Under the pieces are notes generated by a model. That model saw only the letters and a list, made by a program, of their open reading frames with translations. It was not told where the DNA came from and ran no database searches. A program made the position numbers and the translations under genes. From NCBI RefSeq assembly GCF_000010625.1, contig NC_010296.1, forward strand, positions 360,001 through 392,000: a DNA stretch of 32,000 nucleotides, in the 5' to 3' direction. Below are positions 17,297 through 30,477 of the stretch, one piece after another; position 1 is the first letter of the stretch, and each line of letters starts with the position of its first letter. This stretch comes from Microcystis aeruginosa NIES-843. Lineage in GTDB: Bacteria > Cyanobacteriota > Cyanobacteriia > Cyanobacteriales > Microcystaceae.

Positions 17297-17411
17297 GGCA
17301 ATCTACCTCAGATATCGTCAGCAATGGGTGCTTTTCTACTATAGCAGCCAGCCTTTTCAGTGATCAGATCCTGAAGGACGCTACGCGCCCTAAAAAGAAA
17401 AAGAGAAACTA

Positions 17412-18633
17412 GTGGTCTGTCAAAGCAACAATGATGGATAATAGGAGAGGTAAATTCTCCCCAATCTGCTTAAAAATGCCAGCTAAAAAATATATCGTCT
17501 CTTTAACTGAGAAGGAACGCCAAGAACTCGAAGAATTAACCCAAAAGGGAAAATCGGCTGCCCGAAAAATCAATCATGCTCGTATCTTACTCAAGGCAGA
17601 CATTAATCAAATCAATGGGGGATGGAATGATCAAATGATTAGTCAAACATTGGACATAAGTACCAGAACCATTGAGAGAGTGAGGCAAAGATTTGTGGAA
17701 GAAGGATTAGAACAATCACTGAATCCCCGTCCGAAAAACTTGTCAAAACTCAGAAAGATAGATGGGGAAGCAGAAGCCCATTTAATCGCCTTGGCCTGTT
17801 CGGAAGCTCCCACAGGGTATAGCCGTTGGACTTTACGATTATTAGCCGAACAAATGGTCGTTTTAGAGTATGTAGAAACGATTTCCCATGAAAGCGTCAG
17901 ACAAGTCTTAAAAAAAACGAAATTAAACCTTGGCTACAAGAATGTTGGGTAATTCCCCCTCAAGCCAATGCAGAGTTTGTTGGCCAGAGGTCAGAAATTT
18001 TAGAACTCTACACTCGTCCTTATAATCCAGCTTATCCCTTAGTTTGCTTTGATGAAAGCTGCAAGCAACTCATTTCAGAAATCCGACAACCCTTAACTGC
18101 CGAACCAGGAAAACCTGAAGGTTTTGATTATCAATACGAGCGAGAAGGAGTTAGTAATTTATTCATGTTTTTTGAACCCTTAAAAGCTTGGAGACACGTT
18201 GAGGTCACTTCACTGTCACTGACCGACGTACCAGCATTGACTATGCCCAACAAATGAAATACTTAGTGGATGAACGTTATCCAGAGGCTCAAAAAATCCG
18301 AGGGGTTCAAGATAACCTTAATACTCATGTTAAAGCTTCATTATACAAAGCATTTCCCCCTCGTGAAGCTCGTCGAATACTGGACAAGTTAGAATTTTAT
18401 TACACTCCTAAGCATGGAAGTTGGTTGAATATGGCTGAAATTGAGTTAAGTGTTCTCAATAGACAATGCCTTAACCGACGCATTCCTTCCCAAGAGATTT
18501 TAATCCAAGAAGTGGAGGCTTGGGAACAACAAAGAAATCAAACTTCTTCTCCTGTTGATTGGCAGTTTACTACCGAAGATGCTCGCATCAAATTAACTCA
18601 ATTATATCTGTCAATTTTAACTTGACAAACCAG
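17412..18633 (+). mobile_element. IS630-family insertion sequence (copy 1, transposase disrupted)
   Basis: The imperfect terminal inverted repeats are gtggtctgtcaaag (left) and cttgacaaaccag (right). Each is flanked by TA (17410-11 and 18634-35), the IS630 target. Internally there are HTH and DDE transposase reading frames. Confidence 0.75.
17476..18625 (+). pseudogene. IS630-family transposase split over three frames
   Basis: Frame 1 encodes the HTH part up to an A8 run (17910-17917). The -1 frame continues as KKNEIKPWLQECWVIPP...WRHVEVT. An 11-nt extra segment (about 18210-18220, tcactgtcact) then shifts the frame before DRRTSIDYAQQMKYLVDERYP (ORF 18254..18625). Confidence 0.75.
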
Positions 18634-18661
18634 TAGAAACGGCGGCTAAGTTTTTGAGCAT
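18634..18661 (-). pseudogene. 5' remnant (9 codons, MLKNLAAVS) of a PEP-CTERM protein gene cut by IS630 copy 1
   Basis: Bases 18634-18702 are nearly identical to 26003-26073, the start codon region and 5' leader of the intact gene 25310..26029. Confidence 0.7.
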
Positions 18662-18714
18662 TTTAACCTCTCTTTTTTGCTAAATATTTTGATTGCGATC
18701 GCTATCATCGCACC

Positions 18715-18829
18715 CAGGTCAAGCAACAGCCCAACTAGGTGCCAAAGGCGGACAACAAAACAATACATACTACCCCCTCACAACTGTATCTTATGTTACA
18801 TTTTAATAAATCTTTATATTTCTCTCCCC
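18715..18829 (+). repeat. J1 junction element, copy a
   Basis: Matches the consensus GGTCAAGCAAYAGCCCAACCCAA..AAGGCGGA..ACAATACAYA..CCCCCACAAMTGTATCAAAAGCTACAATTTAATAAATNTTT..ATTCCTNTCCC. This is the most diverged copy. Confidence 0.65.
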
Positions 18830-18878
18830 AACCAGCGATTGAGATTTTGGGGTTTTTGGGGAGTTCAAGAGCTTGGAA

Positions 18879-18900
18879 TTGTACAATAAAGTTGTACAAG
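18879..18900. promoter_or_regulatory. Palindromic TGTACA operator upstream of yefM copy 1 (one mismatch)
   Basis: The sequence is ttgtacaa-taaag-ttgtacaag, with a TACAAT -10-like hexamer inside the left half-site. Confidence 0.5.
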
Positions 18901-18915
18901 TCTCCCCTAAAAATC

Positions 18916-19200
18916 ATGTTAAGCAAAGAAACCACCTACTCTCAGGCGAGAATGAATTTAGCCAGTATCTTAGATCAGGTGTGTGACGAATCTCAAATTA
19001 TCGTCATTAAGCGTCGCAATCAGAAAAATGTCGCCTTAATTGCTGAAGATGAGCTTTCCAGTTTATTAGAGTGTGTTTATTTATTGCGCTCGCCAGAAAA
19101 TGCCCAGCGCTTATTTCGCTCTTTAGCATGGACCCAGACAGAAGATGCAACTCCTCAAACATTAGCTGAATTGAAAGAGGAGTTAGGAATTGAGTCCTAA
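18916..19200 (+). CDS. yefM: Phd/YefM-family type II antitoxin (copy 1)
   Basis: 94 aa, MLSKETTYSQARMNLASILDQV..IVIKRRNQKNVALIAEDELSSLLECVYLLRSPENAQRL, typical of YefM. The ORF-track N-terminal extension from 18739 runs over J1 and is rejected. Confidence 0.85.
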   Translation: MLSKETTYSQARMNLASILDQVCDESQIIVIKRRNQKNVALIAEDELSSLLECVYLLRSPENAQRLFRSLAWTQTEDATPQTLAELKEELGIES

Positions 19201-19698
19201 AAGAGAAAATAAGCCAGATAAACCTAAAAACAATCCTATTCATAGTTATTTGCCCGTTTTTAGTCCTGATTTCAAAGCAGATTTAGCTTGGTGGTATCGG
19301 AACGAACCGAAAAAAGGCGATAAAATCTTAGACTTAGTAGCAGATATTTTGGATGCCGATCCGTTTACAGGATTGGGTAGGCCCGAACCTCTTAAGTATA
19401 TTGCTGCCGACACTTGGTCACGACGGATCGACTTAGTGGGACTTAGGCGTTTTCGGTCAGCAAAAAAGGCTCAAACCATTACGGGACAAAGGGTTAACCT
19501 CGATTTATGATTTTCCTTGATATATCTGGGTTTCAGCGATTTTGGGCTTCTCGAAGTAAATCCCAAGCGGGGATTGGAGTTGAAGCTTTTCTCGATTTGT
19601 TTTTTGTCTAAGTCCCATTAGAGCATCGTTTGGTTTATAAAGTCACAGGAAATAAGGTTTATTTTTTACAAGCTCGTTATCATTATCAATCAGGCTAA
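19190..19698 (+). pseudogene. yoeB: Txe/YoeB-family toxin interrupted by a 182-bp MITE (copy 1)
   Basis: The reading frame ...DPFTGLGRPEPLKYIAADTWSRRIDL is broken at 19435 and resumes at 19621 as EHRLVYKVTGNKVYFLQARYHYQSG*. Removing 185 nt restores a 324-nt ORF. The real start may be the TTG at 19250. Confidence 0.85.
19436..19617. mobile_element. 182-bp MITE inside yoeB copy 1
   Basis: The terminal inverted repeats are (g)tgggacttag ... ctaagtccca. It is flanked by a duplicated TTA/TA (19433-35 and 19618-20). It is absent from the otherwise identical copy 2. Confidence 0.85.
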
Positions 19699-19762
19699 AC
19701 TCAGACAAACCTATTAAGAACTGTTACAGGAGAAAGGGGACAAAGAACGTAGTACGTTCCCC

Positions 19763-19883
19763 CTCGCAGCTTGGGTTAAGCGATAGCCCAACCCAACACT
19801 AAAGGCGGATAGTAGAACAATACACACTCCCCCCCACAAATGTATCAAAAGCTACAATTTATAAATCTTTACATTCCTGTCCC
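19763..19883 (+). repeat. J1 junction element, copy b
   Basis: The sequence is ctcgcagcttgggttaagcgatagcccaacccaacactaaaggcggatagtagaacaatacacactcccccccacaaatgtatcaaaagctacaatttataaatctttacattcctgtccc. Confidence 0.7.
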
Positions 19884-19970
19884 TGATGGCTTACGCTGGT
19901 ATCTGTACTACTCCCTTGACAGCATCAGGATTTTCAGTGATCTGGGGATTTGATTGACACTCTAGCTAAA

Positions 19971-20276
19971 ATGTCAGAAAATGAGGGCATAAAAACAATT
20001 CGATGGAGTCAAGAAAAGAACAGACAACTTCAACAAGAACGAGGGCTAACATTTGAGATGGTCGTTACAGCAATACAACAAGGAAATGTCCTAGAAGATC
20101 TCGTCCATCCCAATGTTACTAAATATCCTAACCAGCGCATGATGGTTGTAAGAATTGGTAGTTATGCTTTTCTGGTTCCCTATATAGATTCGCCATCAGA
20201 ACTATTTCTCAAAACAATTATTCCCTCAAGAAAAGCGACAAAGAAATATCTTGGACTCCAGAAAAATAATGACTAA
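19971..20276 (+). CDS. brnT: BrnT-like (DUF497) type II toxin
   Basis: IRWSQEKNRQLQQERGLTFEMV and the C-terminal IIPSRKATKKY resemble the DUF497/BrnT pattern (W..K...N..KHG..F ... ISARKAT..E). Start is uncertain: TTG 19950 or ATG 19971. Confidence 0.6.
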   Translation: MSENEGIKTIRWSQEKNRQLQQERGLTFEMVVTAIQQGNVLEDLVHPNVTKYPNQRMMVVRIGSYAFLVPYIDSPSELFLKTIIPSRKATKKYLGLQKNND

Positions 20277-20550
20277 GCTTAATCAAGAAGAACAAGAAAT
20301 TCTCGATTCTTATGAAAAAGATGAGTGGCTTTCTGTCACCACACCAGAGAGAATCACCGAGATACAATCCTATGGGAAAGCTACCCTAAATAAGGATAAG
20401 AAAGTTACTTTGCGTTTGTCTTCCCTTGATCTGGATGCTCTTCAATCTAAAGCAATAGAGGAAGGTATCCCCTATCAGACACTTATCTCTAGTATCCTGC
20501 ACAAATATATCACGGGTGAGCTAGTTGAAAGTAATTTCAAAAAAGGGTAA
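20269..20550 (+). CDS. brnA: BrnA/CopG-like RHH antitoxin
   Basis: EEQEILDSYEKDEWLSV ... KKVTLRLSSLDLDALQSKAIEEGIPYQTLISSILHKYITG matches the CopG-antitoxin/BrnA pattern. Its ATG overlaps the brnT stop (ATGACTAA). Confidence 0.7.
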   Translation: MTKLNQEEQEILDSYEKDEWLSVTTPERITEIQSYGKATLNKDKKVTLRLSSLDLDALQSKAIEEGIPYQTLISSILHKYITGELVESNFKKG

Positions 20551-20557
20551 ACCAAAA

Positions 20558-20650
20558 CAACGCAACCCAACACCAAGAGACACATTCACACATACTACCC
20601 GACAACTGTATCAAAAGCTACAATTTAATAAATCTTTGCATTCCTCTCCC
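20558..20650 (+). repeat. J1 junction element, copy c (left arm shortened)
   Basis: The sequence is aacgcaacccaacaccaagagacacattcacacatactacccgacaactgtatcaaaagctacaatttaataaatctttgcattcctctccc. Confidence 0.7.
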
Positions 20651-20689
20651 TTCAGATTTTGGGGTTTTTGGGGAGTTCAAGAGCTTGGA

Positions 20690-20712
20690 CTTGTACAATA
20701 AAGTTGTACAAG
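20690..20712. promoter_or_regulatory. Perfect 9-bp inverted repeat operator upstream of yefM copy 2
   Basis: The sequence is cttgtacaa-taaag-ttgtacaag. A TACAAT hexamer is embedded and the yefM ATG is 16 nt downstream. Confidence 0.55.
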
Positions 20713-20727
20713 TCTCCCCTAAAAATC

Positions 20728-21012
20728 ATGTTAAGCAAAGAAACCACCTACTCTCAGGCGAGAATGAATTTAGCGAGTCTCTTAGATCAGGTGTGTGACG
20801 AATCCCAAATTATCGTCATTAAGCGTCGCAATCAGAAAAATGTCGCCTTAATTGCTGAAGATGAGCTTTCCAGTTTATTAGAGTGTGTTTATTTATTGCG
20901 CTCGCCAGAAAATGCCCAACGCTTATTTCGCTCTTTAGCATGGGCCCAGACAGAAGATGCAACTCCTCAAACATTAGCTGAATTGAAAGAGGAGTTAGGA
21001 ATTGAGTCCTAA
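20728..21012 (+). CDS. yefM: Phd/YefM-family type II antitoxin (copy 2)
   Basis: 94 aa, differing from copy 1 by a few residues only. Confidence 0.85.
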   Translation: MLSKETTYSQARMNLASLLDQVCDESQIIVIKRRNQKNVALIAEDELSSLLECVYLLRSPENAQRLFRSLAWAQTEDATPQTLAELKEELGIES

Positions 21013-21414
21013 AAGAGAAAATAAGCCAGATAAACCTAAAAACAATTCTATTCATAGTTATTTGCCCGTTTTTAGTCCTGATTTCAAAGCAGATTTAGCT
21101 TGGTGGTATCGGAACGAACCGAAAAAAGGCGATAAAATCTTAGACTTAGTAAGCTTAGACGCATTTAAGTTTCCTACTCGTATCCCTATCTACAAGGCGT
21201 TCCAGGATATTAAAGTGCAATGTAAGTGCGTCTAAGCTTAGCAGATATTTTGGATGCCGATCCGTTTACAGGATTGGGTAGGCCCGAACCTCTTAAGTAT
21301 ATTGCTGCCGACACTTGGTCACGACGGATCGACTTAGAGCATCGTTTGGTTTATAAAGTCACAGGAAATAAGGTTTATTTTTTACAAGCTCGTTATCATT
21401 ATCAATCAGGCTAA
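21002..21414 (+). pseudogene. yoeB: Txe/YoeB-family toxin interrupted by an 87-bp MITE (copy 2)
   Basis: The frame is broken after ..KKGDKILDLV at 21151 and resumes at 21241 (ADILDADPFTGLGRPEPLKY...RYHYQSG*). Removing 89 nt restores the same 324-nt ORF as in copy 1. Confidence 0.85.
21152..21238. mobile_element. 87-bp MITE inside yoeB copy 2
   Basis: The terminal inverted repeats are agcttagacgca(t)ttaag ... (c)ttacgtgcgtctaagct in reverse-complement sense, about 15 bp. It is flanked by a duplicated TA (21150-51 and 21239-40). Confidence 0.85.
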
Positions 21415-21506
21415 ACTCAGACAAACCTATTAAGAACTGTTACAGGAGAAAGGAGACAAAGAACGTATTTTGTCGGTTATTTTTCGGTGAAGTTGGCGGG
21501 GTTGAC

Positions 21507-22007
21507 TTATTGATTTTCATCAATTTCTTGCGCCGATCTTAATAGATATAAATACAATCTTTGATTAACAAGGAAACCTGCTTTTAAAATTAAATCATCC
21601 ATTAATGGCTGAATGGCAGCAATTAATCTTCTTCTTTTGGCAATTAATAAAATACCTAAAATTCCCATAACATTCAAGCCTAAACTCATAGCTTTCTTTC
21701 TGCCAGGGTTCTCATCTATAATGACTCTATCAGCATTTAGAGAAATAGCTAAAGCTATCGTTTCTGATTCTCCTCGGTGTAATTCCTTCTGTAAATCTTT
21801 CAATAATAAACGATCTTTTAACTCTCGCTTTTCTATCCAAGATAGGGTTTGAACTTCAATAGTGCCTGGAACTGAATAACCTAATCCTGTCATTTCTTCA
21901 TAAACAGCTACTGGAATAATAATTGTTCCATAAATATCAGGCAGCAAGTTAAGATAGCCGATAGCAGCTAAACTGGTAATAGGAGAGGTGTTACTAACAA
22001 CAATCAC
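21507..22007 (-). CDS. DUF3368-type PIN-like toxin (full length, catalytic-site variant)
   Basis: 166 aa from a GTG that overlaps the upstream stop (GTGA). It aligns over its full length by eye with the paralog at 23968..24477, but the N-terminal motif reads VVSNTSP instead of VVSDTSP. Confidence 0.7.
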   Translation of the reverse strand: MIVVSNTSPITSLAAIGYLNLLPDIYGTIIIPVAVYEEMTGLGYSVPGTIEVQTLSWIEKRELKDRLLLKDLQKELHRGESETIALAISLNADRVIIDENPGRKKAMSLGLNVMGILGILLIAKRRRLIAAIQPLMDDLILKAGFLVNQRLYLYLLRSAQEIDENQ

Positions 22008-22249
22008 AGATCGCCTAAGCTTTTTAGCGTTTCTAATTCTTGTTGCCAATCTACACTATCATAATTTACACAAATATTCCTCTTGGCGAGTTCTTGACGA
22101 AATTAAATTAAAGATAAGTTGGCAAAATCAGCCGCTTTTGCGCTACTGATATGATAATCTCTAAACATAATGATTGCCAGTTCTAGTCGCAACAGTTGCT
22201 CGTTTTTTCCTGTTGCTTGTATAATTTCGTTGGGAATCACAATAGTCAT
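22004..22249 (-). pseudogene. UPF0175-family antitoxin with premature stop (E49*)
   Basis: Collinear with the intact copy at 26745..26990. Base 22105 is A where the intact copy has C, changing GAA to TAA at codon 49. This is why no ORF appears here in the track. Confidence 0.8.
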
Positions 22250-22342
22250 TGAATTTTACGATATCGATCTGAGAGTTGCCATTATATCACAAAAAACTAC
22301 TTGTGAACAATTAATTAATAAAAATTAATGATTAGAAACACG

Positions 22343-22493
22343 GGCAAAAAAATAAACCCACTCAAGATTGAATGAAGGGGCATTTATGGTATTTTTAGAG
22401 GCAATTTAGCCGAATTTTGTGGTTTTTTTTTCGGTGGATTTAGAGGGTTTTAGTTTACGCTTCAGGGTTGAAGTTGTGGCGAAGAGGTCGAGG
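22343..22493 (-). repeat. J2 junction element copy 1, with a PEP-CTERM tail remnant
   Basis: The minus strand reads ..LFATTSTLKRKLKPSKSTEKKTTKFG* (stop at 22406-08). It is followed by the conserved hairpin and T-run. No upstream body of the gene is present. Confidence 0.7.
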
Positions 22494-22526
22494 ACGATTT
22501 GAGGAAAACTGTTAAATGTGATTAAA

Positions 22527-22751
22527 TAGGGTTTGCGGCAAAAAGTTTTTCCTGGGGGCAGGGTGTGGGGTGTAGGGTGTAGGGTGTAGGGTGTAGGGTT
22601 TTAGCGATTTTGAGGGGGTCAATTACCTAATTTTCAGGGAAAAAGTCCAGGAATTTTCCACCCGATCACTCCCAGATCTGGCACTTTTTGGTTTCCAAAA
22701 AGTCTAAAAGTCTTACCCAACAAGGTTTTTAGATTTATTCAGCAAGCCCTA
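22527..22751. mobile_element. MITE-like dispersed repeat with GGGTGTR x5 heptamer core (copy B)
   Basis: Collinear with 14007-14223. The inverted termini are tagggtttgcgg / cagcaagcccta. The heptamer number differs (5 versus 4). Confidence 0.65.
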
Positions 22752-22800
22752 AATAGAGTACAATGAAAGTTGAAGATACACCTAGTTACCTAGTTAAGCC

Positions 22801-23007
22801 ATGAAACAAGTTCTCAAAAATATTAAGGTATCGGAGATTCCTACACTAATCGCTCAGTTAGGTCTTTCTCCTGAACAAGAAGTTAATCTGACGATTGAGG
22901 AAAATTCAGAAAGTCTTATCTCAATTATGGATAAAGTCGGCAAAAAAGCTCAAGCTAAAGGTTTGACAGAAGATAAACTAACAGAACTATTAGCAGATGA
23001 ATCCTAA
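22801..23007 (+). CDS. Putative antitoxin (68 aa) of the downstream PIN toxin
   Basis: Small acidic ORF overlapping the PIN gene start by 11 nt. Family not recognised. Confidence 0.55.
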   Translation: MKQVLKNIKVSEIPTLIAQLGLSPEQEVNLTIEENSESLISIMDKVGKKAQAKGLTEDKLTELLADES

Positions 23008-23407
23008 TCGAGTTGTTATAGATACCAATGTTTTTATTAGTGCTTTACTCAATCCACTAGGAACACCCAAAAAAGTAATCAATATAGCAGTCAGTCAATT
23101 TACCATTCTCCAGAGCGAGGCAACTTATCAAGAATTGGCAACGAGAATAAGTAAAAAGAAATTTGACAAATATTTAGAAAAAGATGATAGGTTAGATTTC
23201 TTGTCGTCTCTTAAAAATAGGAGCTTATTTGTTGATATATTGCATGAAACGAGAGTGTGTTCCGATTTAGATGATAATAAATTCTTAGAATTAGCTGTAT
23301 CTGGAATGGCACAATACATCATAACAGGCGATAAGGATCTTTTAATTCTCAATACTTATCAAGGGATTCCAATTATTACTCCAGCAGAGTTTTTAGCTAT
23401 TTTCTAG
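22997..23407 (+). CDS. PIN-domain toxin (PIN_3 / TIGR00305-like)
   Basis: 136 aa with VVIDTNVFISALL at the N-terminus and ITGDKDLL near the C-terminus, the hallmark of this PIN subgroup. Confidence 0.75.
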   Translation: MNPNRVVIDTNVFISALLNPLGTPKKVINIAVSQFTILQSEATYQELATRISKKKFDKYLEKDDRLDFLSSLKNRSLFVDILHETRVCSDLDDNKFLELAVSGMAQYIITGDKDLLILNTYQGIPIITPAEFLAIF

Positions 23408-23435
23408 TGTCACTGAGAATTTTTTGAGGGAGGAA

Positions 23436-23536: not shown

Positions 23537-23544
23537 GGAGGGGT

Positions 23545-23612
23545 TTATTTGGCAACTGATAATAAAGCCTCTTCTATTGGCTTTGGTAACTCAATAGCAT
23601 AAAACCGATTCT
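23545..23612 (-). pseudogene. 3' remnant (about 22 codons) of a paralog of the 27190..27429 gene
   Basis: The minus strand reads NRFYAIELPKPIEEALLSVAK*, compared with NRFHPIELPKPIEEALLSMAN* in the intact gene. It has the same junction to J2. Confidence 0.65.
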
Positions 23613-23640
23613 TAATGTGTAAAATGTGTAAGAGGAAGAG

Positions 23641-23690
23641 ACGCAAAAAATAAACCTGCTCAACTGACTAAATGAAGGGGGTTATGATAT
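23641..23690 (-). repeat. J2 junction element copy 3 (hairpin part only)
   Basis: The sequence acgcaaaaaataaacctgctcaactgactaaatgaagggggttatgat resembles the A-run plus hairpin portion of J2. Confidence 0.45.
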
Positions 23691-23725
23691 CATTCCAATA
23701 GGAAGGGATAGATAGGGTTATAGCC

Positions 23726-23971
23726 ATGAGTATTGATATCTCCGATGAAATTCTCAGTGCAACACGCATGACTGAAGCTGAGATGAGGCAGGAAATTGCG
23801 GTCATGCTCTTTCAAAAAGAGAAGCTCACCCTTGCTCAAGCGAGTCGATTTGCAGGAATGAATCGTATTGCTTTTCAACACCTACTTGCAAGTCGTCAAA
23901 TTCCGGTACACTACGATGTCGAAGATTTTGAACAGGATATTAAGAACTTGCGGGAGATGGGAAGATTGTGA
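23726..23971 (+). CDS. UPF0175-family antitoxin
   Basis: 81 aa, MSIDISDEILSATRMTEAEMRQEIAVMLFQKEKLTLAQASRFAGMNRIAFQHLLASRQIPVHYD. It has a 4-nt overlap with the downstream PIN-like gene. Confidence 0.75.
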   Translation: MSIDISDEILSATRMTEAEMRQEIAVMLFQKEKLTLAQASRFAGMNRIAFQHLLASRQIPVHYDVEDFEQDIKNLREMGRL

Positions 23972-24477
23972 TTGTTGTCAGTGATACATCCCCTATCAAC
24001 AATCTTGCCGCCATTAATCAACTTCATCTGCTACAACAACTTTACGAAATAGTTTTTATTCCTGAAGCAGTTTATCGAGAATTAACTGAGCCTGATTTTC
24101 CAGTAGCAGGTTCAATAGAAGTCCAAACCTTAGATTGGATTCAAACTCGAACGGTAACTAACCGCACGGTGATTAAAGCTCTTGCTGATGAACTAGATAA
24201 GGGAGAAGCTGAGGCTATTGCTTTAGCACTTGAGTTGGGAGCAGATCAAGTTTTGATTGATGAGCGTCGTGGTCGTAGAATTGCTGCTAGACTTAATCTT
24301 CGATACACAGGAATTCTGGGCATTTTAGTTGAGGCGAAGAATCGAGGGTTAATCTCTGAGGTGAAACCCTTGCTAGACGCTTTGATTGATCGAGCAGGAT
24401 TTTGGGTTGCTGCACCTTTATACAGCAGTGTTTTACAGATTGTTGATGAAGAAAAAAATAAACCCCCTCAAGATTGA
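23968..24477 (+). CDS. DUF3368-type PIN-like toxin
   Basis: 169 aa with MIVVSDTSPINNLAAI and GEAEAIALA..DERRGR motifs. The last ~8 codons (EEKNKPPQD*) are encoded by J2 copy 4. Confidence 0.75.
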   Translation: MIVVSDTSPINNLAAINQLHLLQQLYEIVFIPEAVYRELTEPDFPVAGSIEVQTLDWIQTRTVTNRTVIKALADELDKGEAEAIALALELGADQVLIDERRGRRIAARLNLRYTGILGILVEAKNRGLISEVKPLLDALIDRAGFWVAAPLYSSVLQIVDEEKNKPPQD

Positions 24478-24536
24478 AGAAGGGGCATTGATGGTATTTT
24501 TAGAGGCAATTTAGCCTACTTTTGTGGTTTCTTTTT
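24451..24536 (-). repeat. J2 junction element copy 4
   Basis: The sequence is gaaaaaaataaaccccctcaagattgaagaaggggcattgatggtatttttagaggcaatttagcctacttttgtggtttcttttt. Confidence 0.7.
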
Positions 24537-24578
24537 AATGGCGATACAATGAAGTTACCACCACTTAATGAAACCTCT

Positions 24579-24887
24579 ATGAGCCTCATCCTTCCCTCTG
24601 AACTTCTGCAAACAGTACAAATGACTGAAGCTCAAATGCTCACGGAAATCGCTATCATGCTCTATCAGCAGCAACGTCTTCAATTTGAACAAGCAGCCGA
24701 ACTAACGGGAATGGCGATCGATGATTTCTACCAATTGCTAGTATCGCGTAATATCCTCACTCCACCCACGGACCCCGACGACGAACCAAAAGAACTCATC
24801 CTCACCAGTCTTCGTATTTCTCTTCAGCAAGTTAAAGAGGGCAAAGTACATCCCATCTCTGAACTGTGGGATGGCATAGATGACTGA
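24579..24887 (+). CDS. Antitoxin with a UPF0175-like N-terminal domain (partner of the RelE-like toxin)
   Basis: MSLILPSELLQTVQMTEAQMLTEIAIMLYQQQRLQFEQAAELTGM aligns with the UPF0175 proteins of this window. The upstream part of ORF 24522 lies in J2 and is rejected. Confidence 0.6.
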   Translation: MSLILPSELLQTVQMTEAQMLTEIAIMLYQQQRLQFEQAAELTGMAIDDFYQLLVSRNILTPPTDPDDEPKELILTSLRISLQQVKEGKVHPISELWDGIDD

Positions 24888-25233
24888 AGGAATCCCCTCT
24901 ATTAAAATCCTTTTCTCTGATGAATTCAAGGATCGACTTCGCATCCTCGCCAAACGCTATCGGAGCATTCGTACTGATATACAACCCCTAATTGATGACC
25001 TTCAGATAGGCAAATTCATCGGCGATAAAATACCAGGAATAGGCTACACTGTTTTTAAAGTTCGCCTCAAAAACAGCGATATTCAAAAGGGCAAAAGTAG
25101 CGGCTATCGTGTTATCTATCAACTTAAAGACAATAGTTATGTTTTGATGCTCCTCATCTATGCCAAATCTGACCAAACGGACATCCCAGCGCAGCAAATT
25201 CAAGACATCATTAATAAGTTTGACAGTTTTTAG
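24880..25233 (+). CDS. RelE/ParE-superfamily type II toxin
   Basis: 117 aa. FKVRLKNSDIQKGKSSGYRVIYQL....LMLLIYAKSDQTDI is the typical RelE/HigB-like core. Its ATG overlaps the antitoxin stop. Confidence 0.7.
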   Translation: MTEGIPSIKILFSDEFKDRLRILAKRYRSIRTDIQPLIDDLQIGKFIGDKIPGIGYTVFKVRLKNSDIQKGKSSGYRVIYQLKDNSYVLMLLIYAKSDQTDIPAQQIQDIINKFDSF

Positions 25234-25249
25234 AAGTATTAATAGATGC

Positions 25250-25284
25250 CAAAAATAAACCTCCTCAAGATTGAATTAAGGGGG
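25250..25284 (-). terminator. Rho-independent terminator of the PEP-CTERM gene (part of J2 copy 5, 25249-25350)
   Basis: The minus strand reads CCCCCTTAA-ttcaatc-TTGAGGAGG followed by TTTATTTTTGG. Confidence 0.6.
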
Positions 25285-25309
25285 CATTTATGGTATTTTT
25301 AGAAGCAAT

Positions 25310-26029
25310 TTATCCTATTTCTGTGGTTTCTTTTTCAGTGGATTGAGAGGACTTTAGTTTGCGTTTGAGGGTTGAAGCTGCGCCGAGAGTGCCGAGGGCA
25401 AGGAGACTGAGGGTTGAGGTGGGTTCAGGGACTGAGGTTGGTGCGTTGCTTCCTGTCAAAGTTCCTTGCAATCTTACTCCTTCTAGGAAGTTATCTGTTG
25501 GATCAATAATCCGAATGGTTAGTTGATTCTGTCCTTGATTGAGAAGTGCAGCCGTGGAAGAACCTGCGGCAAGAGAAAATGGTGTTAAACTACCCCAAGC
25601 GCCAGCACTTAGTGAGGCAATCTGTTGCCCATTGAGAGCCAAAATACCAGTATCATCTACCGCCCAACTCCCTGTAATAGAGACTGTCGAGAGATCGACC
25701 CCAGTCAGATCAAAGGCACGAGTATAAGTTCCAAGTCCATTAGCTGGTGTATTGGCATCTCTAGCAATCCAAGTGGAATTAGGCCCATTAGCCAACCATC
25801 CACCAAACCAATTTGGATTGCCCGGATAGACTGTTTGAGCCGGAGTAGTAGTTGAACTGCCTTGAGGGTTATCTACAGTCCAGTGAGCGTCAGATTGTGC
25901 TCCTGTTGTGATTAAGGTATTGGAAGCATCTAATCCTGTTGCTAAATTAATAGTGATCGCTTGAGCTTGAGTCGGAAAAAATAAAAAAGGAATGACTAGA
26001 GTAGAAACGGCGGCTAAGTTTTTTAGCAT
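25310..26029 (-). CDS. Secreted PEP-CTERM sorting-domain protein
   Basis: It has a signal peptide (MLKNLAAVSTLVIPFLFFPTQAQA). The C-terminal VPEPTSTLSLLALGTLGAASTLKRKLK gives the PEP motif, a TM helix and a basic cluster, followed by a 13-aa tail. Confidence 0.85.
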   Translation of the reverse strand: MLKNLAAVSTLVIPFLFFPTQAQAITINLATGLDASNTLITTGAQSDAHWTVDNPQGSSTTTPAQTVYPGNPNWFGGWLANGPNSTWIARDANTPANGLGTYTRAFDLTGVDLSTVSITGSWAVDDTGILALNGQQIASLSAGAWGSLTPFSLAAGSSTAALLNQGQNQLTIRIIDPTDNFLEGVRLQGTLTGSNAPTSVPEPTSTLSLLALGTLGAASTLKRKLKSSQSTEKETTEIG

Positions 26030-26085
26030 TCTAACCTCTCTTTTTTGCTAAATATATTGTTAAGTGCGATCGCCCTTTAGCCATT

Positions 26086-26198
26086 AGGTGAAGCAACAAC
26101 CCAACCCAACACCAAAGGCGGATAGTAGAACAATACACACTCCCCCCCCACAAATGTATCAAAAGCTACAATTTAATAAATATTTGCATTCCTATCCC
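26086..26198 (+). repeat. J1 junction element, copy d
   Basis: The sequence is aggtgaagcaacaacccaacccaacaccaaaggcggatagtagaacaatacacactccccccccacaaatgtatcaaaagctacaatttaataaatatttgcattcctatccc. Confidence 0.7.
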
Positions 26199-26237
26199 TT
26201 CAGATTTTGGGGTTTTTGGGGAGTTCAAGAGCTTGGA

Positions 26238-26260
26238 CTTGTACAATAAAGTTGTACAAG
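26238..26260. promoter_or_regulatory. Perfect inverted-repeat operator upstream of yefM copy 3
   Basis: The sequence is cttgtacaa-taaag-ttgtacaag, with TACAAT at 26242-26247. Confidence 0.55.
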
Positions 26261-26275
26261 TCTCCCCTAAAAATC

Positions 26276-26560
26276 ATGTTAAGCAAAGAAACCACCTACT
26301 CTCAGGCGAGAATGAATTTAGCCAGTATCTTAGATCAGGTGTGTGACGAATCTCAAATTATCGTCATTAAGCGTCGCAATCAGAAAAATGTGGCGTTAAT
26401 TGCTGAAGATGAGCTTTCCAGTTTATTAGAGTGTGTTTATTTATTGCGATCTCCGGAAAATGCCCAACGCTTATTTCGCTCTTTAGCATGGACCCAGACA
26501 GAAGATGCAACTCCTCAAACATTAGCTGAATTGAAAGAGGAGTTAGGAATTGAGTCCTAA
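26276..26560 (+). CDS. yefM: Phd/YefM-family type II antitoxin (copy 3)
   Basis: 94 aa, near-identical to copies 1 and 2. Confidence 0.85.
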   Translation: MLSKETTYSQARMNLASILDQVCDESQIIVIKRRNQKNVALIAEDELSSLLECVYLLRSPENAQRLFRSLAWTQTEDATPQTLAELKEELGIES

Positions 26561-26597
26561 AAGAGAAAATAAGCCAGATAAACCTAAAAACAATCCT
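26550..26597 (+). pseudogene. yoeB: 16-codon 5' stub of yoeB (copy 3)
   Basis: Homology with copies 1 and 2 stops after ..aaaaacaatcct. The sequence then jumps into the inverted PIN-like gene. Confidence 0.8.
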
Positions 26598-26748
26598 CAA
26601 TAGTACCTGGAACTGAATAACCTAATCCTGTCATTTCTTCATAAACAGCTACTGGAATAATAATTGTTCCATAAATATCATGGAGCAAGTTAAGATAGCC
26701 GATAGCAGCTAAACTGGTAATAGGAGAGGTGTTACTAACAACAATCAC
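26598..26748 (-). pseudogene. 5' fragment (about 50 codons) of the DUF3368 PIN-like toxin
   Basis: Collinear with 21857-22007 of the full-length copy. The 3' two-thirds are deleted. Confidence 0.8.
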
Positions 26749-26990
26749 AGATCACCTAAAGTTTTTAAGGTTTCTAATTCTTGTTGCCAATCTACACTAT
26801 CATAATTTACGCAAATATTCCTCTTGGCGATTTCTTGACGAAATTCAATTAAAGATAAGTTGGCAAAATCAGCCGCTTTTGCGCTACTGATATGATAATC
26901 TCTAAACATAATGATTGCCAGTTCTAGTCGCAACAGTTGCTCGTTTTTTCCTGTTGCTTGTATAATTTCGTTGGGAATCACAATAGTCAT
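26745..26990 (-). CDS. UPF0175-family antitoxin (intact copy)
   Basis: 81 aa, MTIVIPNEIIQATGKNEQLLRLELAIIMFRDYHISSAKAADFANLSLIEFRQEIAKRNICVNYD. Confidence 0.75.
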   Translation of the reverse strand: MTIVIPNEIIQATGKNEQLLRLELAIIMFRDYHISSAKAADFANLSLIEFRQEIAKRNICVNYDSVDWQQELETLKTLGDL

Positions 26991-27082
26991 TGAATTTTAC
27001 GATATTAAACTGAGAGCCATTATTGTATCACAAAAACTACTTGCGAGCAATTAATTAAGAAAAATTAATGATTGGAAACACG

Positions 27083-27189
27083 GGCAAAAAAATAAACCCA
27101 CTCAAAATTGAATGAAGGAGCATTTATAGTATTTTTAGAGGCAATTTAGCCTACTTTTGTGGTTTCTTTTTCGGTGGATTGGCAGGATT
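27083..27189 (-). repeat. J2 junction element copy 6
   Basis: The sequence is ggcaaaaaaataaacccactcaaaattgaatgaaggagcatttatagtatttttagaggcaatttagcctacttttgtggtttctttttcggtggatt. It abuts the stop of the 27190 gene. Confidence 0.7.
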
Positions 27190-27429
27190 TTAGTTGGCCA
27201 TTGATAACAATGCCTCTTCTATTGGCTTTGGTAACTCAATAGGATGAAACCGATTCACAGAAAAAGCGTAATCTTCACCACTTTCATCAATAACCCGAAT
27301 TAGACCGTTTATTTCTGCTGTCTCATCAGGGACAACGCGGTATATTTTGCCCACCTCTAGTGAAGCTTCGTAGCCTTCATTATTGAGACAAACTGCGAAC
27401 TTATTTGTTGGAGATGACTCTATTTTCAT
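27190..27429 (-). CDS. Small conserved hypothetical protein (79 aa), second gene of an unclassified two-gene module
   Basis: MKIESSPTNKFAVCLNNEGYEASLEVGKIYRVVPDETAEINGLIRVIDESGEDYAFSVNRFHPIELP. The ATG is 2 nt after the upstream stop. A decayed second copy of its 3' end lies at 23545-23612. Confidence 0.6.
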   Translation of the reverse strand: MKIESSPTNKFAVCLNNEGYEASLEVGKIYRVVPDETAEINGLIRVIDESGEDYAFSVNRFHPIELPKPIEEALLSMAN

Positions 27430-27431
27430 GG

Positions 27432-27668
27432 TCAATCTAGAAACGGTAACTTGAGCTTAAATTCTTTTTTGCCGATGCCATGAGCTTCATACCAATGGAC
27501 TTCAGCTAACCTTACTATACCATTGGGAAGCTGAACTTGGGCTATGCCCTTTAATTTTCTCCATTTACCTTTGCCATACTGTTTTTGCAACCGTTCCCGA
27601 TTACGAATTCCTGTTCCTATGGCAATAATCTCGATATTCGTGATATCGCTGATAATCTCAAAGTCCAC
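27432..27668 (-). CDS. Small basic hypothetical protein (78 aa), first gene of the module
   Basis: MDFEIISDITNIEIIAIGTGIRNRERLQKQYGKGKWRKLKGIAQVQLPNGIVRLAEVHWYEAHGIGKKEFKLK. No named family recognised. Confidence 0.6.
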   Translation of the reverse strand: MDFEIISDITNIEIIAIGTGIRNRERLQKQYGKGKWRKLKGIAQVQLPNGIVRLAEVHWYEAHGIGKKEFKLKLPFLD

Positions 27669-27732
27669 GATCGAGCAAGCAATCTTAAAGAGTGGCCTTT
27701 CACTATAGCATCTATTGCCAAAAAAGAGATAT

Positions 27733-27768
27733 AAAAAAACAAAACCCCCTCAAGATTGATTGAAGGGG
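27733..27768 (-). terminator. Rho-independent terminator (part of J2 copy 7, 27733-27830)
   Basis: The minus strand has a 9-bp stem, CCCCTTCAA-tcaatc-TTGAGGGGG, followed by TTTTGTTTTTTTAT. Confidence 0.65.
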
Positions 27769-27793
27769 TATTTATGGTATTTTTAGAAACAAT

Positions 27794-28179
27794 TTAGCCG
27801 ACTTTTGTGGTTTCTTTTTCAGTGGATTTAGAGGGTTTTAGTTTGCGTTTGAGGGTTGAAGCTGCTCCTAGTGTGCCGAGGGTTAATAAGCTGATGACTG
27901 TAGAGGGTTCGGGTATACATTCTCCAACATCGAATGCAGGTACTAGGGCTTGTGATACATAGACTATTGAGTTAGGGTCACCCGTAAAAACTGATAAGTC
28001 ATATCCAGGAAGAAGGTTTGGAAGATCAGCTAACGTGGATGTTACATTCAAGAAGGAAGTATAAATTGTACCCGTTTTTCTCCCTATAAATAATTCATCA
28101 GAAAGAGGCACAATTTGAGGATCAATAGCATTAAAACCTGTTTGTAAAGGAACGTCGTCTGGATTACCAGATGGATTTA
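27794..28179 (-). pseudogene. C-terminal half of a PEP-CTERM protein gene split by IS630 copy 2
   Basis: Encodes ..NPSGNPDDVPLQ...CIPEPSTVISLLTLGTLGAASTLKRKLKPSKSTEKETTKVG*. The first ~16 codons of ORF 27794..28228 are IS sequence. Confidence 0.85.
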
Positions 28180-29213
28180 TAGCAATTCTCTGACTTATGA
28201 GGTACAGTAGCAACAGTGAGTAAACCAATTGCGAATATCTTTTTGAGTAACTTCTAACATAGCCAATTCAATCCCTTCTATTAAGTCTTTGTAAGTTCTC
28301 GCCTTCAGTTTTCTTAACGTCGCTTTCACTTTTGACCAAAAGTTTTCAATAGGAGAGAATTCGGGAGAATAAGGAGGTAAATAGATGAGTCTAGCTTTTT
28401 CTTGTTCGATTATTTCTCTGACCATTTCTCCGAGATGAATCTTGGCGTTATCCATGATCAGACAGTCTCCTTCTTTAATTTTTGGCAGCACTTCCTTTAG
28501 AATAAATCCTTCAAATGTTACCGCATCCACTGCACCGTATATGTTGACTGATGCGACAACTTTTTCTAAGCTTATAGCACTAATTATTGAAATATTTCTC
28601 CCTCTTTTTTGTGGTTTTCTTCCCCGAGCTCTTCGGCCAATTAAGGCTCTAGCATAGAGTCTCAAAAGGGCTAAATTTACCCCCGATTCATCGATGAAAA
28701 TTAGTTTTGATGCCTCAATTTCCCGAACTTCTGACCAGTATTCCACTCTTTTTTGCTGTACCCTGTCACTTTCTTTTTCCGCCGCGTGTAGTGTTTTTTT
28801 TTGAAACTGTAATTGAGTTTTTGCGTAAGCCGCCCCAGGGTGGCTCTACTGACTTTCACCTGTGTCTTTTCATACAGTAAGTCCGATAATTCTTCGAGAG
28901 TTGCATCATTGTTAGCTTCGATGATTTCTATTAAAATTATCAGTTGTTCACTATTTAACTTGGTTGGCGGACTTCCCCCTTGCGGACGAGGACGGATATC
29001 TCCTGTTTCTTTATGTTGCTTCAATAACTTCTGAATAAAGCTTTTAGCCACGTCAAATCTCTGGGCTAGTCCTCGAATGGAAATTTTTTCTTTCTTCCAG
29101 ACATCGATAATTTTTTGGCGAAAATCTACGGAATAGGGTCTCATAGGAAGCCGGTAAGTTCTATTATTTGTCTATTTGCTTTCCATTGTACCTCATAGCT
29201 CCAAGAATTGCTA
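28180..29213 (-). mobile_element. IS630-family insertion sequence (copy 2, apparently intact)
   Basis: The ~27-bp imperfect terminal inverted repeats are tagcaattct..tatgaggtaca at both ends. A TA duplication flanks it (28178-79 and 29214-15). Two overlapping transposase ORFs lie inside. Confidence 0.85.
28195..29144 (-). CDS. IS630/Tc1-mariner-type transposase made from two frames (-1 shift at an A9 run)
   Basis: OrfA (HTH, 28701..29144) and OrfB (DDE, 28195..28746) overlap. The -1 frame is open from the A9 run (T9 on the plus strand, 28794-28802), giving ..LNYSFKKK/TLHAAEKESDRVQQKRVEYWSEV.. Confidence 0.8.
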
Positions 29214-29546
29214 TAAGTCAAGAGACCAAACATCAGTCAACACAACTTGGCTATTAGGATCAACATTTCCTAGAGTTACTTTGATATCTATATATGTACT
29301 TGCGAATACTGGGACGGGAATTTTAATTGTAAAATCTCTGCTGTCTTTAATCCCACATTTAAAGCAAAGACCAAATTTTCCTAGGTCAACTCCCAAAAAA
29401 GTCTCCAAAGTAACTTTCTTACTTTCAAATACAAATCCTTTAAAATCTGGAAAAGGTCCAAGTTTTAAAGCAGATGCCGGTTGAGCTAGTAAGGCAAAGG
29501 ATACTGTACCTAAAAGACTACCTACAAAGACATTTCTACGATTCAT
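29214..29546 (-). pseudogene. N-terminal half of the PEP-CTERM protein gene split by IS630 copy 2
   Basis: It begins MNRRNVFVGSLLGTVSFALLAQPASA (signal peptide) and continues to ...VLTDVWSLDL, then runs into a TAG created by the IS end. The real start is ATG 29546, not 29645. Confidence 0.85.
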
Positions 29547-29592
29547 AAAATAAGCCTCAAATTTGTATGTAAGTGTGACAAAAACACAATAG

Positions 29593-29704
29593 ATCGAGCA
29601 ACAACCCAACCCAAGACACAAGGCAGACAATAGAACAATACACATTCCCCCCCCACAACTGTATTAAAAGCTACAATTTAATAAAGTCTTTATATTTTTC
29701 TCCC
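29593..29704 (+). repeat. J1 junction element, copy e
   Basis: The sequence is gatcgagcaacaacccaacccaagacacaaggcagacaatagaacaatacacattccccccccacaactgtattaaaagctacaatttaataaagtctttatatttttctccc. Confidence 0.7.
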
Positions 29705-29844
29705 TAGCTTAGGGGTTGACAGAGCAGGGAGTCTCAGGTGTTTTCCACTGTTTTACTCCTTCTCAGACGAACTATCCTCTTCCTTGAGTTATTGTGGCGC
29801 GGTCTGTCGGATTCGCCTTTGCGTTCATCTCTGTCTCGAAGTTG

Positions 29845-29873
29845 TTGAAGCAGATTCTCTATTTTGTTATAAT
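29845..29873 (+). promoter_or_regulatory. Candidate promoter of the 29893-30311 gene pair
   Basis: TTGAAG (29845-50), a 17-nt spacer, then TATAAT (29868-73). A GGGAGGG Shine-Dalgarno follows at ~29895. Confidence 0.4.
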
Positions 29874-29892
29874 TAGTGTCATTCGTTCGGTT

Positions 29893-30078
29893 TTGGGAGG
29901 GAAAAATATTCCGACACTTGCACAACTCTTACAATGTTATACCCTATCTTGTTGGGCAACAAGGTTTTATTTACCAATTAACTTAATAAGATTGGATGAG
30001 CGTACTAAAAATATTTTCATGTTAATTGGTGAAGGTATTGAGATTGAAATTAAACCTAATGGACAATGGATAAAATGA
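29893..30078 (+). CDS. Small cyanobacterial protein (about 61 aa), possibly DUF6888-like
   Basis: PTLAQLLQCYTLSCWATRFYLPINLIRLDERTKNIFMLIGEGIEIEIKPNGQWIK resembles, from memory, a cyanobacteria-restricted family. The start is uncertain (TTG 29893). The upstream part of ORF 29794 is probably non-coding. Confidence 0.45.
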   Translation: MGGKNIPTLAQLLQCYTLSCWATRFYLPINLIRLDERTKNIFMLIGEGIEIEIKPNGQWIK

Positions 30079-30311
30079 ATCAAAAACCTAATTTTAAAAC
30101 TATGACATCTCAAGAATTAAAAAGTTATGTATTATCTCATCGTGAGGATGACGAGGCTTTTTATGCTTATGTAGATAAGGTAAATGAAAGAAAAGATCGA
30201 GTAGTTTATCCACCTTTAAACTCATTAGAAGAACTGGAAAAATATCCCGAAGTTATTGAACAAATGCGTCAAGATTCCCGTCATAATTTTCAGCAAAATG
30301 AGTTAACTTAG
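30066..30311 (+). CDS. Small cyanobacterial protein (81 aa), possibly DUF6887-like
   Basis: KPNFKTMTSQELKSYVLSHREDDEAFYAYVDKV resembles, from memory, the family usually paired with the upstream one. It overlaps the upstream gene by 13 nt. Confidence 0.55.
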   Translation: MDKMNQKPNFKTMTSQELKSYVLSHREDDEAFYAYVDKVNERKDRVVYPPLNSLEELEKYPEVIEQMRQDSRHNFQQNELT

Positions 30312-30331
30312 ATACAGTGCGATCGCACTCT

Positions 30332-30456
30332 CTCGCAGTCAGGTCAAGCAATAGCCCAACCCAAGACAGAAGGAGGACAGTGAAAAATACACATTTTTTA
30401 CTCTAAGACTGTAGCCTAAGCTACAATTTAATAAATATTTACATTCCTCCTTTCTC
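30332..30456 (+). repeat. J1 junction element, copy f (island boundary next to asnS)
   Basis: The sequence is ctcgcagtcaggtcaagcaatagcccaacccaagacagaaggaggacag..aaaaatacacat..gactgtagcctaagctacaatttaataaatatttacattcctcc. No plus-strand gene follows it. Confidence 0.65.
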
Positions 30457-30477
30457 CTGTCGATCCTAGACATCATT

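Follow-up and report, generated by a model that had tools for sequence, protein, structure and literature searches.

Toxin-antitoxin cassette arrays of Microcystis are built on the conserved flanks of PEP-CTERM genes

Between the gene of a radical-SAM/DUF2344 protein and asnS (Pfam and NCBIfam assignments), Microcystis aeruginosa NIES-843 carries a block of about 13 kb (17410-30470 of the 32,000-nt stretch analysed here, which we call the window) in which small toxin-antitoxin (TA) modules are interspersed with copies of two short conserved elements, J1 and J2. What are these elements, and how do the modules between them come to differ from strain to strain? An initial annotation had read the block as an island resembling a gene-cassette array, whose conserved non-coding junctions mediate the gain, loss and shuffling of modules. 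We identify J1 and J2 as the upstream and downstream flanks of PEP-CTERM genes, and the block as one of several Microcystis arrays built on such flanks; the identity of the junctions and the genus-wide, multi-locus scale of the arrays are additions to that annotation. Its inventory of TA modules, two IS630 insertion sequences (IS) and two miniature inverted-repeat transposable elements (MITEs) stood, and was corrected from Pfam and NCBIfam to two PEP-CTERM genes plus two remnants (three genes or remnants had been counted) and to about eleven two-gene modules instead of about ten.

Using a repeat search, alignment and nhmmer, we found six copies of J1, as first described, and six full plus two partial copies of J2 in place of the seven J2 counted before; all of them lie on the plus strand. 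The copies, of about 110 nt, are 62-95% alike and contain exact runs of 20-28 nt. The J core motifs have 4 to 6 matches in the window and none in 100 shuffles of it, and the 17 kb of housekeeping DNA that precede the block on its left contain no J copy. The intervals from one J to the next were clustered at 85% identity and are labelled as cassettes K0, K1, K2 and so on.

18714-18829, plus strand: J1a, nhmmer 102 bits
19771-19884, plus strand: J1b, nhmmer 105 bits
20556-20651, plus strand: J1c, without the left arm, nhmmer model positions 12-115, 67.5 bits
21464-21508, plus strand: J2a, partial (right end only), from the repeat search
22345-22455, plus strand: J2b, nhmmer 110 bits
23440-23550, plus strand: J2c, nhmmer 107 bits, with a minus-strand terminator-like site at 23476-23449
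23645-23680, plus strand: partial J2 inside cassette K7, from the repeat search
24452-24536, plus strand: J2d, truncated at model position 85 (nhmmer positions 1-85)
25251-25359, plus strand: J2e, nhmmer 102 bits, holding the stop and last 16 codons of the intact PEP-CTERM gene
26084-26199, plus strand: J1d, nhmmer 110 bits, 55 nt upstream of the start codon of the intact PEP-CTERM gene
27087-27195, plus strand: J2f, nhmmer 109 bits
27735-27843, plus strand: J2g, nhmmer 109 bits, with a minus-strand terminator-like site at 27769-27744
29589-29703, plus strand: J1e, nhmmer 97.5 bits, 43 nt upstream of the start codon of the split PEP-CTERM gene
30339-30453, plus strand: J1f, adjoining the 3' end of asnS, nhmmer 94 bits

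The nature of both elements becomes clear from their position relative to the PEP-CTERM genes and remnants of the block, which are the following.

18632-18691, minus strand: PEP-CTERM 5' remnant (5' untranslated region (UTR) and first codons), severed by IS630, matching the beginning of the intact gene (26000-26059) at 95% identity
about 22456-22510: PEP-CTERM 3' remnant within cassette K5, from the alignment of J2 flanks
25310-26029, minus strand: intact PEP-CTERM gene, 239 amino acids (aa), TIGR02595 19.6 bits (cut-off 16), Pfam PEP-CTERM 20.0 bits, just below the cut-off of 20.7
27794-28179 and 29214-29546, minus strand: PEP-CTERM gene split by IS630, NCBIfam TIGR02595 23.7 bits (cut-off 16)

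Read on the minus strand, the right half of J2 (about 50 nt) codes for the last 16 residues, KLKPSxSTEKETTxxG, and then the stop of both PEP-CTERM genes. The remainder is a 3' UTR whose end, on reading the sequence, is formed by a 9-bp G+C hairpin with a T run after it, and a terminator scan returned a minus-strand hairpin in three J2 copies. J2 is the shared 3' end of PEP-CTERM genes, comprising the last 16 codons, the 3' UTR and the terminator hairpin. J1, in turn, is found upstream of the PEP-CTERM genes, in the window at 43-55 nt from their start codons, and at loci elsewhere with a solo J1 the nearest gene on that side is mostly a minus-strand PEP-CTERM gene of another subfamily whose start is 47-59 nt away; J1 is the upstream element that these genes have in common. 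Conservation ends about 60-80 nt into the PEP-CTERM gene when followed from the J2 side and at the edge of J1 when followed from the other, and the gene bodies between J2 and J1 have no DNA-level relation to each other. An IS630-free version of the split gene (27794-29546) is present in locus L025.

The pattern scan for J1 demanded a palindrome, and the invariance of this motif was judged only on 18 distinct J1 sequences from loci retrieved without it. TGTA-N8-TACA, with a variable N8, is kept in 18 of the 18, and in 14 of them the minus-strand stretch scanned downstream of it (17-26 nt) contains a TAnnnT, which in 12 stands at 19-21 nt; this we take to be the layout of NtcA-type activated promoters. 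J1 is probably a promoter read on the minus strand, with an activator site of the NtcA/CRP type. Four of the distinct J1 sequences lack TAnnnT; they are represented by 20556-20651 of the window, the copy after the second yefM-yoeB in L006, those at 18952 and 19974 (reverse-complement coordinates) in L007, and L025 at 3805. All four keep TGTA-N8-TACA and three have a TA cassette, not a PEP-CTERM gene, on the transcribed (left) side, the numbers being small. A generic sigma-70 scan speaks against a promoter, having given no match with its hexamers inside J1a-J1e and a total for the region at the level of shuffles; because it did no better than on shuffled sequence, it is the activator-type motif by itself that suggests the promoter. 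Three of the six J1 copies are preceded on the left, at a distance of 10-12 nt, by a HIP1 (highly iterated palindrome) site, GCGATCGC (18695-18702, 26066-26073 and 30319-30326).

The search of sequence collections for J1 and J2, which the initial annotation had proposed, found copies dispersed through genomes and through the genus. A J1 scan of a genome collection listed at least 120 loci and a J2 scan of a metagenome collection was made independently; counts from both are lower bounds. In the genome collection a true J1 was confirmed by profile at 66 of the loci listed, 64 labelled Microcystis and two on contigs of one Merismopediaceae metagenome-assembled genome (MAG), and the remaining 54 pattern loci among the matches listed, from unrelated taxa, gave no profile match. 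The metagenome collection held at least 108 loci with a true J2, at least 72 of them also with J1. Within complete chromosomes J1 sites lie megabases apart, at 1.58, 3.29 and 3.58 Mb in BLCC-F210 and at 0.62, 0.70, 0.94 and 3.88 Mb in FBCC-A1114. Arrays occur away from asnS, and at least 11 genomes have asnS-adjacent arrays whose contents differ. Given this genome-wide and genus-wide dispersal, the block is not an island complete in itself but one of several arrays.

The arrays follow a common layout. No conflict of orientation was met in the approximately 174 loci listed from both samples. Among the matches listed, neighbouring elements (genome plus metagenome collection) formed 44+71 J2>J1, 31+49 J2>J2, 30+24 J1>J1 and 7+7 J1>J2 pairs, and their spacings cluster at 533-540, 648-650, 709-715, 757-760, 803, 881-884 and 903-912 nt. 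The PEP-CTERM-type protein cluster C0, on the minus strand, has 36 of its 37 members within J2>J1 intervals (44 such intervals listed), and the intervals between like elements (J2-J2, J1-J1) contain two-gene TA modules, which belong to many families and may lie on either strand. In its typical form the unit reads (J2-cassette)n - J2 - PEP-CTERM gene - J1 - (cassette-J1)m. At 3.88 Mb of M. ichthyoblabe FBCC-A1114 (L104, 4015-4181) a partial J2 (model positions 7-88) is separated by 1 nt from a partial J1 (31-114); this abutment is presumably a gene-free slot left by a deletion.

How the modules change places is best followed through the cassettes of the block, given here with their genes.

18916-19700, plus strand: yefM-yoeB copy 1, with yefM 18916-19200 and yoeB from 19190, the latter split by MITE 1 (Pfam PhdYeFM_antitox, YoeB_toxin)
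19950-20550, plus strand: brnT-brnA module, cassette K10 (Pfam BrnT_toxin, CopG_antitoxin and BrnA_antitoxin, all under gathering scores)
20728-21420, plus strand: yefM-yoeB copy 2, yoeB (21002-21420) split by MITE 2 (Pfam YoeB_toxin at 21226-21414)
21507-22249, minus strand: DUF3368 PIN-like gene 21507-22049 and truncated UPF0175 gene 22103-22249 (Pfam)
22456-23407, plus strand: cassette K5, with the PEP-CTERM 3' remnant, a repeat-rich spacer, an antitoxin gene 22801-23007 and a PIN_3 toxin gene 22997-23407 (Pfam 4e-19)
23551-24477, plus strand: cassette K7, with a 3'-end remnant of a K1-type gene, the partial J2 23645-23680, UPF0175 23726-23971 and DUF3368 23968-24477 (Pfam)
24522-25233, plus strand: cassette K2, with a UPF0175-type antitoxin gene 24522-24887 and a RelE/ParE-type toxin gene 24880-25233 (Pfam UPF0175; Pfam RelE and ParE_toxin under gathering scores; a weak NCBIfam RelE/ParE match)
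26276-26990, mixed strands: composite cassette K11, with yefM 26276-26560 (plus), a truncated yoeB, a joint at 26597, a truncated DUF3368 gene (minus) and UPF0175 26745-26990 (minus) (Pfam)
27190-27668, minus strand: cassette K1, a pair of small genes (81 and 78 aa) that overlap, a stop codon lying within the right end of J2f
29794-30311, plus strand: cassette K0, with DUF6888 29794-30078 (Pfam 4.7e-26) and DUF6887 30066-30311 (Pfam 1.2e-23)

That the content of the locus varies was borne out, both by strains with an identical radical-SAM protein, which differ in array content, and by the asnS-adjacent arrays. In the assembly collection, 29 index blocks contain an identical copy of the radical-SAM/DUF2344 protein, and 22 contigs were read. 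The closest array is that of Microcystis viridis NIES-102 (L008, L016), 99.7-100% identical to the window block by block and differing by IS and MITE insertions; NIES-102 has one of approximately 1.3 kb at the site of window position 18921, one of about 190 nt that falls in the DUF3368 gene (at 24124) and one of about 2.2 kb that interrupts the PEP-CTERM gene at 25310-26029. An IS605 OrfB gene stands just past asnS in that strain.

Across loci the same cassettes return with exact lengths (540, 714, 881-884 and 903 nt), other neighbours and other orders. K1 is a cassette of 539-540 nt in 11 loci with differing neighbours, K0 lies between two J1 copies in 12 loci, K10 appears as the same 672-nt cassette in L006 and L071, K5 recurs in L006, L038, L088 and L094, and the composite K11 in L025 and L088. 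Order is swapped between BLCC-F210 (K2-K1) and M015S2 (K1-K2), and between NIES-4325 (K5-K2) and T1-4 (K2-K5). Every recurrent cassette type is bound to one J type, and a truncated J2 (model end 85 or 91) precedes K2 in every K2 locus inspected (L007, L038, L043, L082, L088 and L094). The clearest single difference is that between K5-J2-K7-J2-K2 of the window and K5-J2-K2 of NIES-4325, where the flanks are conserved and exactly one J2 remains at the joint; K7 is not present between K5 and K2 in L038.

In agreement with the proposal that breakpoints concentrate in J1 and J2, 38 of the 65 distinct homology end points obtained when the window island was compared with every other locus fall in J, against 13.6% expected (p=3e-17), where the J zone is J plus or minus 15 nt, or 13.6% of the island, and the compared loci are not independent. 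Many of the other end points are insertion points of MITEs or IS, lie just inside the PEP-CTERM domain by J2, or mark an internal duplication joint. Those within J are scattered along the element, and the linkage of J variants to their left neighbour fades gradually without a sharp crossover point, in small samples (26 and 5 informative pairs for J2). The left 30-40 nt or so of J1 go with the gene or cassette on their left in other strains. The idea that the left arm shared by the outermost J1 copies is an island-level attachment repeat finds no support here; the match between these two arms is itself not accounted for by neighbour linkage, their left neighbours being different. Nor do the outermost J1 copies mark both edges of the island, as had been thought, because IS630 and a PEP-CTERM remnant lie outside J1a on the left. 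The view of J as a junction at which modules are gained, lost and shuffled thus holds insofar as modules do reorder at J, and was revised in that J1 and J2 are not free-standing non-coding sites, being PEP-CTERM 5' and 3' flanks.

We favour ordinary homologous (RecA-type) recombination between the repeated J gene flanks as the process that exchanges cassettes, and put its probability at roughly 0.6. Any two copies in a locus would, as direct repeats of about 110 nt, be substrates for homologous recombination, which could delete or duplicate the interval between them, excise it as a circle, re-insert it or swap it. The partners might be J copies on one and the same chromosome, J copies on two copies of the chromosome, or a resident J and one on DNA acquired from another strain. 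The small self-contained modules, almost all of them type II TA pairs, are situated between duplicated J2 copies on the downstream side of a PEP-CTERM gene or, on its upstream side, between duplicated J1 copies. Homologous recombination between direct repeats would explain why all J copies point one way, why each cassette keeps to one J type and why arrays lie on both sides of PEP-CTERM genes, as well as the scattered breaks, the many ragged partial J copies and the gene remnants. We infer that general recombination, and not a dedicated enzyme, does the work.

Searches for machinery were negative. As the initial annotation had stated, no integrase or recombinase is encoded in any open reading frame (ORF) of the window scanned with Pfam and NCBIfam, and none recurs among the 25 commonest of 127 clusters of flank proteins from the 66 loci, a tally in which single occurrences would not show. 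Folding of J1 as single-strand DNA gave z-scores of +0.6 to -0.7, no attC-like signal, and that of J2 only the local 9-bp hairpin. Matches to the J pattern in viral contigs were chance ones without support from the hidden Markov model, phage records contained no J match, and plasmid records matched only inside TA coding sequence.

Several observations weigh against homologous recombination. An identity of only 62-95% over about 110 nt makes J a poor RecA substrate, though the exact runs of 20-28 nt exist, and the end of a homology is not the same thing as a crossover. When one cassette is compared between its different contexts, its copies are 96-99% identical, a divergence about equal to that of the core genome (asnS between the same genomes, 97-98.5%), so that exchange must be slow or lie well back in time; no very recent transfer came to light. 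Many of the contigs compared are short-read or MAG assemblies in which mis-joins at repeats are possible; the pattern does hold in the complete NIES-102 and BLCC-F210. The scaffold L007 has runs of N at two junctions, and its shorter island was left out of the evidence. Finally, homologous recombination does not explain the initial step, the arrival of a first module between two J copies of the same type.

Some of these features would suit an unlinked site-specific recombinase acting on a core site in J1 and J2 and inserting or excising J-bearing circles in the manner of integrons or Xer/dif: the strict co-orientation of J, the exact cassette lengths, the holding of each cassette type to one J type, an identity that is low for RecA, and blocks of J that stay invariant even where, in a TA context, J serves no gene. 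Such an enzyme is nevertheless unlikely, given that none is encoded in or near the arrays (window ORFs and commonest flank families), that J has neither an attC-like fold nor an RYYYAAC...GTTRRRY pair, that end points spread over the whole of J with linkage decaying gradually instead of switching sharply, and that ragged partial J copies and gene remnants abound within cassettes. The fuller proposal, a Microcystis cassette-capture system analogous but unrelated to integrons, in which an unlinked recombinase uses core sites in J1 and J2 to stockpile TA and defence cassettes beside surface-protein genes, seems to us quite unlikely.

J1 and J2 might, on the other hand, be alike only because they work as promoter and terminator of PEP-CTERM genes, without any part in mobility. 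The arrays would then have grown as PEP-CTERM units were duplicated in tandem and their gene bodies replaced piece by piece, and breakpoints would seem to fall in J only because no other sequence can be aligned. Real PEP-CTERM genes are indeed flanked by J1 and J2, PEP-CTERM remnants survive inside cassettes K5 and K6, and the J1 copies without TAnnnT mostly (3/4) face a TA cassette in place of a PEP-CTERM gene. Yet the same cassette is met with other neighbours on both sides and in inverted order, a difference of one cassette leaves one intact J2, the J2 copies beside TA modules keep a now useless coding tail at 85-95% identity, and duplication alone predicts repeats of J2-gene-J1 rather than runs of J2-J2 and J1-J1, all of which makes this account improbable. 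One recent segmental duplication inside the island, of which the J copies would be by-products, could be thought of since some J do lie within larger duplications (J1 plus yefM three times, at 97-98% identity, and 21856-22155 versus 26597-26896, at 96%); most J copies, however, bound unrelated modules with flanks that are not homologous past J, J occurs at many loci in many genomes, and the cassettes recur elsewhere. We therefore reject that explanation, which is scarcely credible, an outcome in favour of the initial annotation.

Comparison with known cassette systems helps to place homologous recombination between gene flanks. Integron arrays and clusters of attC sites lacking integrases (CALINs), for example the Vibrio superintegron, consist of small cassettes, many of them TA pairs, separated by a repeat of about 110-125 nt in one orientation, with content that varies between strains. 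J arrays resemble them in their small, often TA cassettes, in a conserved and co-oriented repeat at each boundary and in their variation between strains. They differ in having no IntI, in a J without attC hairpin or R and L boxes and without a GTTRRRY partner at its far end, in cassettes that lie on both strands with promoters of their own (yefM keeps its operator palindrome), and in two junction types, each the flank of a resident gene family. An attC/integron origin was rejected, as the folding and motifs of J do not fit it. The pdif modules of Acinetobacter plasmids are often TA pairs, bounded by 28-bp XerC/XerD sites that alternate in orientation (PMC13141974, PMC6449649). J arrays share with them discrete, often TA modules, short conserved bounding sites, shuffling, and the lack of a module-encoded recombinase, but J is about 110 nt long, always direct and chromosomal, and no Xer-type site was recognised in it by eye. 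Compared by eye with the XerD arm of E. coli, the J1 block ATTTAATAAAT agrees at 8 of 11 bases, which carries no evidential weight.

The minimal mobile elements and intergenic mosaic repeat arrays of Neisseria are strain-variable cassettes at a fixed chromosomal site; they lack genes for mobility, and their movement is attributed to transformation with homologous recombination at conserved flanks. Different content between the same conserved flanks, without mobility genes, is also what is met in the J arrays; in Neisseria, however, whole flanking genes give the homology and each site has one cassette, whereas J arrays use short repeated gene flanks and are multi-cassette at several sites. By this analogy the nearest mechanistic relative would be the homology-bounded cassette site of Neisseria. 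In the tandem accretion of integrative elements, direct repeats that copy a gene 3' end separate kilobase inserts, with a tyrosine integrase carried or borrowed. The runs of J2 resemble such 3'-end repeats between successive inserts downstream of a gene, but the J inserts are of 0.5-1 kb and bring no integrase, and the 5' flank J1 acts alike. Unlike the ends of MITEs or composite transposons, J copies show no inverted pairing, and the MITEs and IS630 of the block are separate insertions.

Microcystis is the main former of freshwater blooms and has among the most plastic bacterial genomes and the largest TA loads. To our knowledge the turnover of this load has so far had no explanation, and our literature searches found no description of the J elements or of this array arrangement. 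The arrays offer a concrete route, in which gene flanks of about 110 nt would serve as junctions for the gain, loss and reordering of modules without an enzyme encoded by the element. They also tie the TA pool physically to PEP-CTERM genes, whose bodies appear themselves to be exchanged between the same conserved flanks. Horizontal transfer of TA genes between Microcystis lineages has been described (10.1101/541755), one genome report lists 62 clusters of PEP-CTERM proteins (PMC7498433), and another study found higher expression of PEP-CTERM genes in colonies (PMC12642866).

J repeats break short-read assemblies at the arrays, so that array variation is under-sampled in existing data. The exact AsnS protein, for instance, was found on five contigs (L001-L005) of 1.4-2.1 kb, four of which stop 58 nt past the stop codon, inside J1f, and the fifth at 147 nt. 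In L017-L019 the far side of the asnS array is a MoaA-like radical-SAM gene with a DDE_Tnp_1 transposase in place of the DUF2344 radical-SAM gene, a different flank which implies that the chromosome was rearranged with a breakpoint at the array.

The genes that border the block in the window and its mobile elements are as follows.

14726-17296, minus strand: radical-SAM/DUF2344 gene, conserved left flank (Pfam Radical_SAM_N2, Radical_SAM, DUF2344)
17410-18630, plus strand: IS630 copy 1 with a frameshifted transposase, HTH part 17431-17952 (HTH_32) and DDE_3 part 18254-18625 (Pfam)
19437-19617: MITE 1, 182 bp, in yoeB copy 1, with terminal inverted repeats, not in L006
21151-21238: MITE 2, 88 bp, in yoeB copy 2, with terminal inverted repeats, not in L006 or NIES-102
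about 28180-29213: IS630 copy 2, inside the PEP-CTERM gene, terminal inverted repeats 28174-28213 and 29180-29219 (Pfam DDE_3, HTH_32)
30478-31842, minus strand: asnS, conserved right flank (Pfam tRNA-synt_2, tRNA_anti-codon)

IS630 copy 1 is also present in L006 and L007, at 99.8-99.9% identity. The two insertions in yoeB are called MITEs because they have terminal inverted repeats and the same sites are empty in a related strain. All three yoeB genes of the window are inactivated, two by these different MITEs and the third (26550-26597) by truncation at the joint with the truncated DUF3368 gene. The three yefM genes and their TGTACA operator palindromes are intact in the window, including a TGTACA-type palindrome at 18876-18902 that belongs to yefM copy 1, and the matching yoeB genes are whole (107 aa) in L006.

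In all, the modules comprise three yefM-yoeB, one brnTA, three UPF0175-DUF3368 (one of them intact), an antitoxin-PIN_3, a UPF0175-RelE, the 27190-27668 pair and DUF6888-DUF6887. With Pfam and NCBIfam, PhdYeFM/YoeB, UPF0175/DUF3368 and PIN_3 score above cut-offs and BrnT/BrnA and RelE fall below theirs; neither database attaches a toxin function to DUF6888/DUF6887 or to the 27190-27668 pair. The latter, cassette K1, has no Pfam or NCBIfam match, and its part 27269-27593, across the gene junction, is 69% identical at the DNA level to 74983-75312 of the Candidatus Thiodictyon plasmid NZ_CP020372.1, where two hypothetical proteins are annotated, which fits K1 as a conserved two-gene module.

An Rfam scan of the window at gathering thresholds returned no known RNA family. 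A repeat of about 230 nt is shared, at 86-88% identity, between the housekeeping DNA (14007-14231, between a pilC-like gene and ORF 14243-14683) and the island (22527-22759), and the island copy contains tandem GGGTGTA heptamers at 22554-22602.

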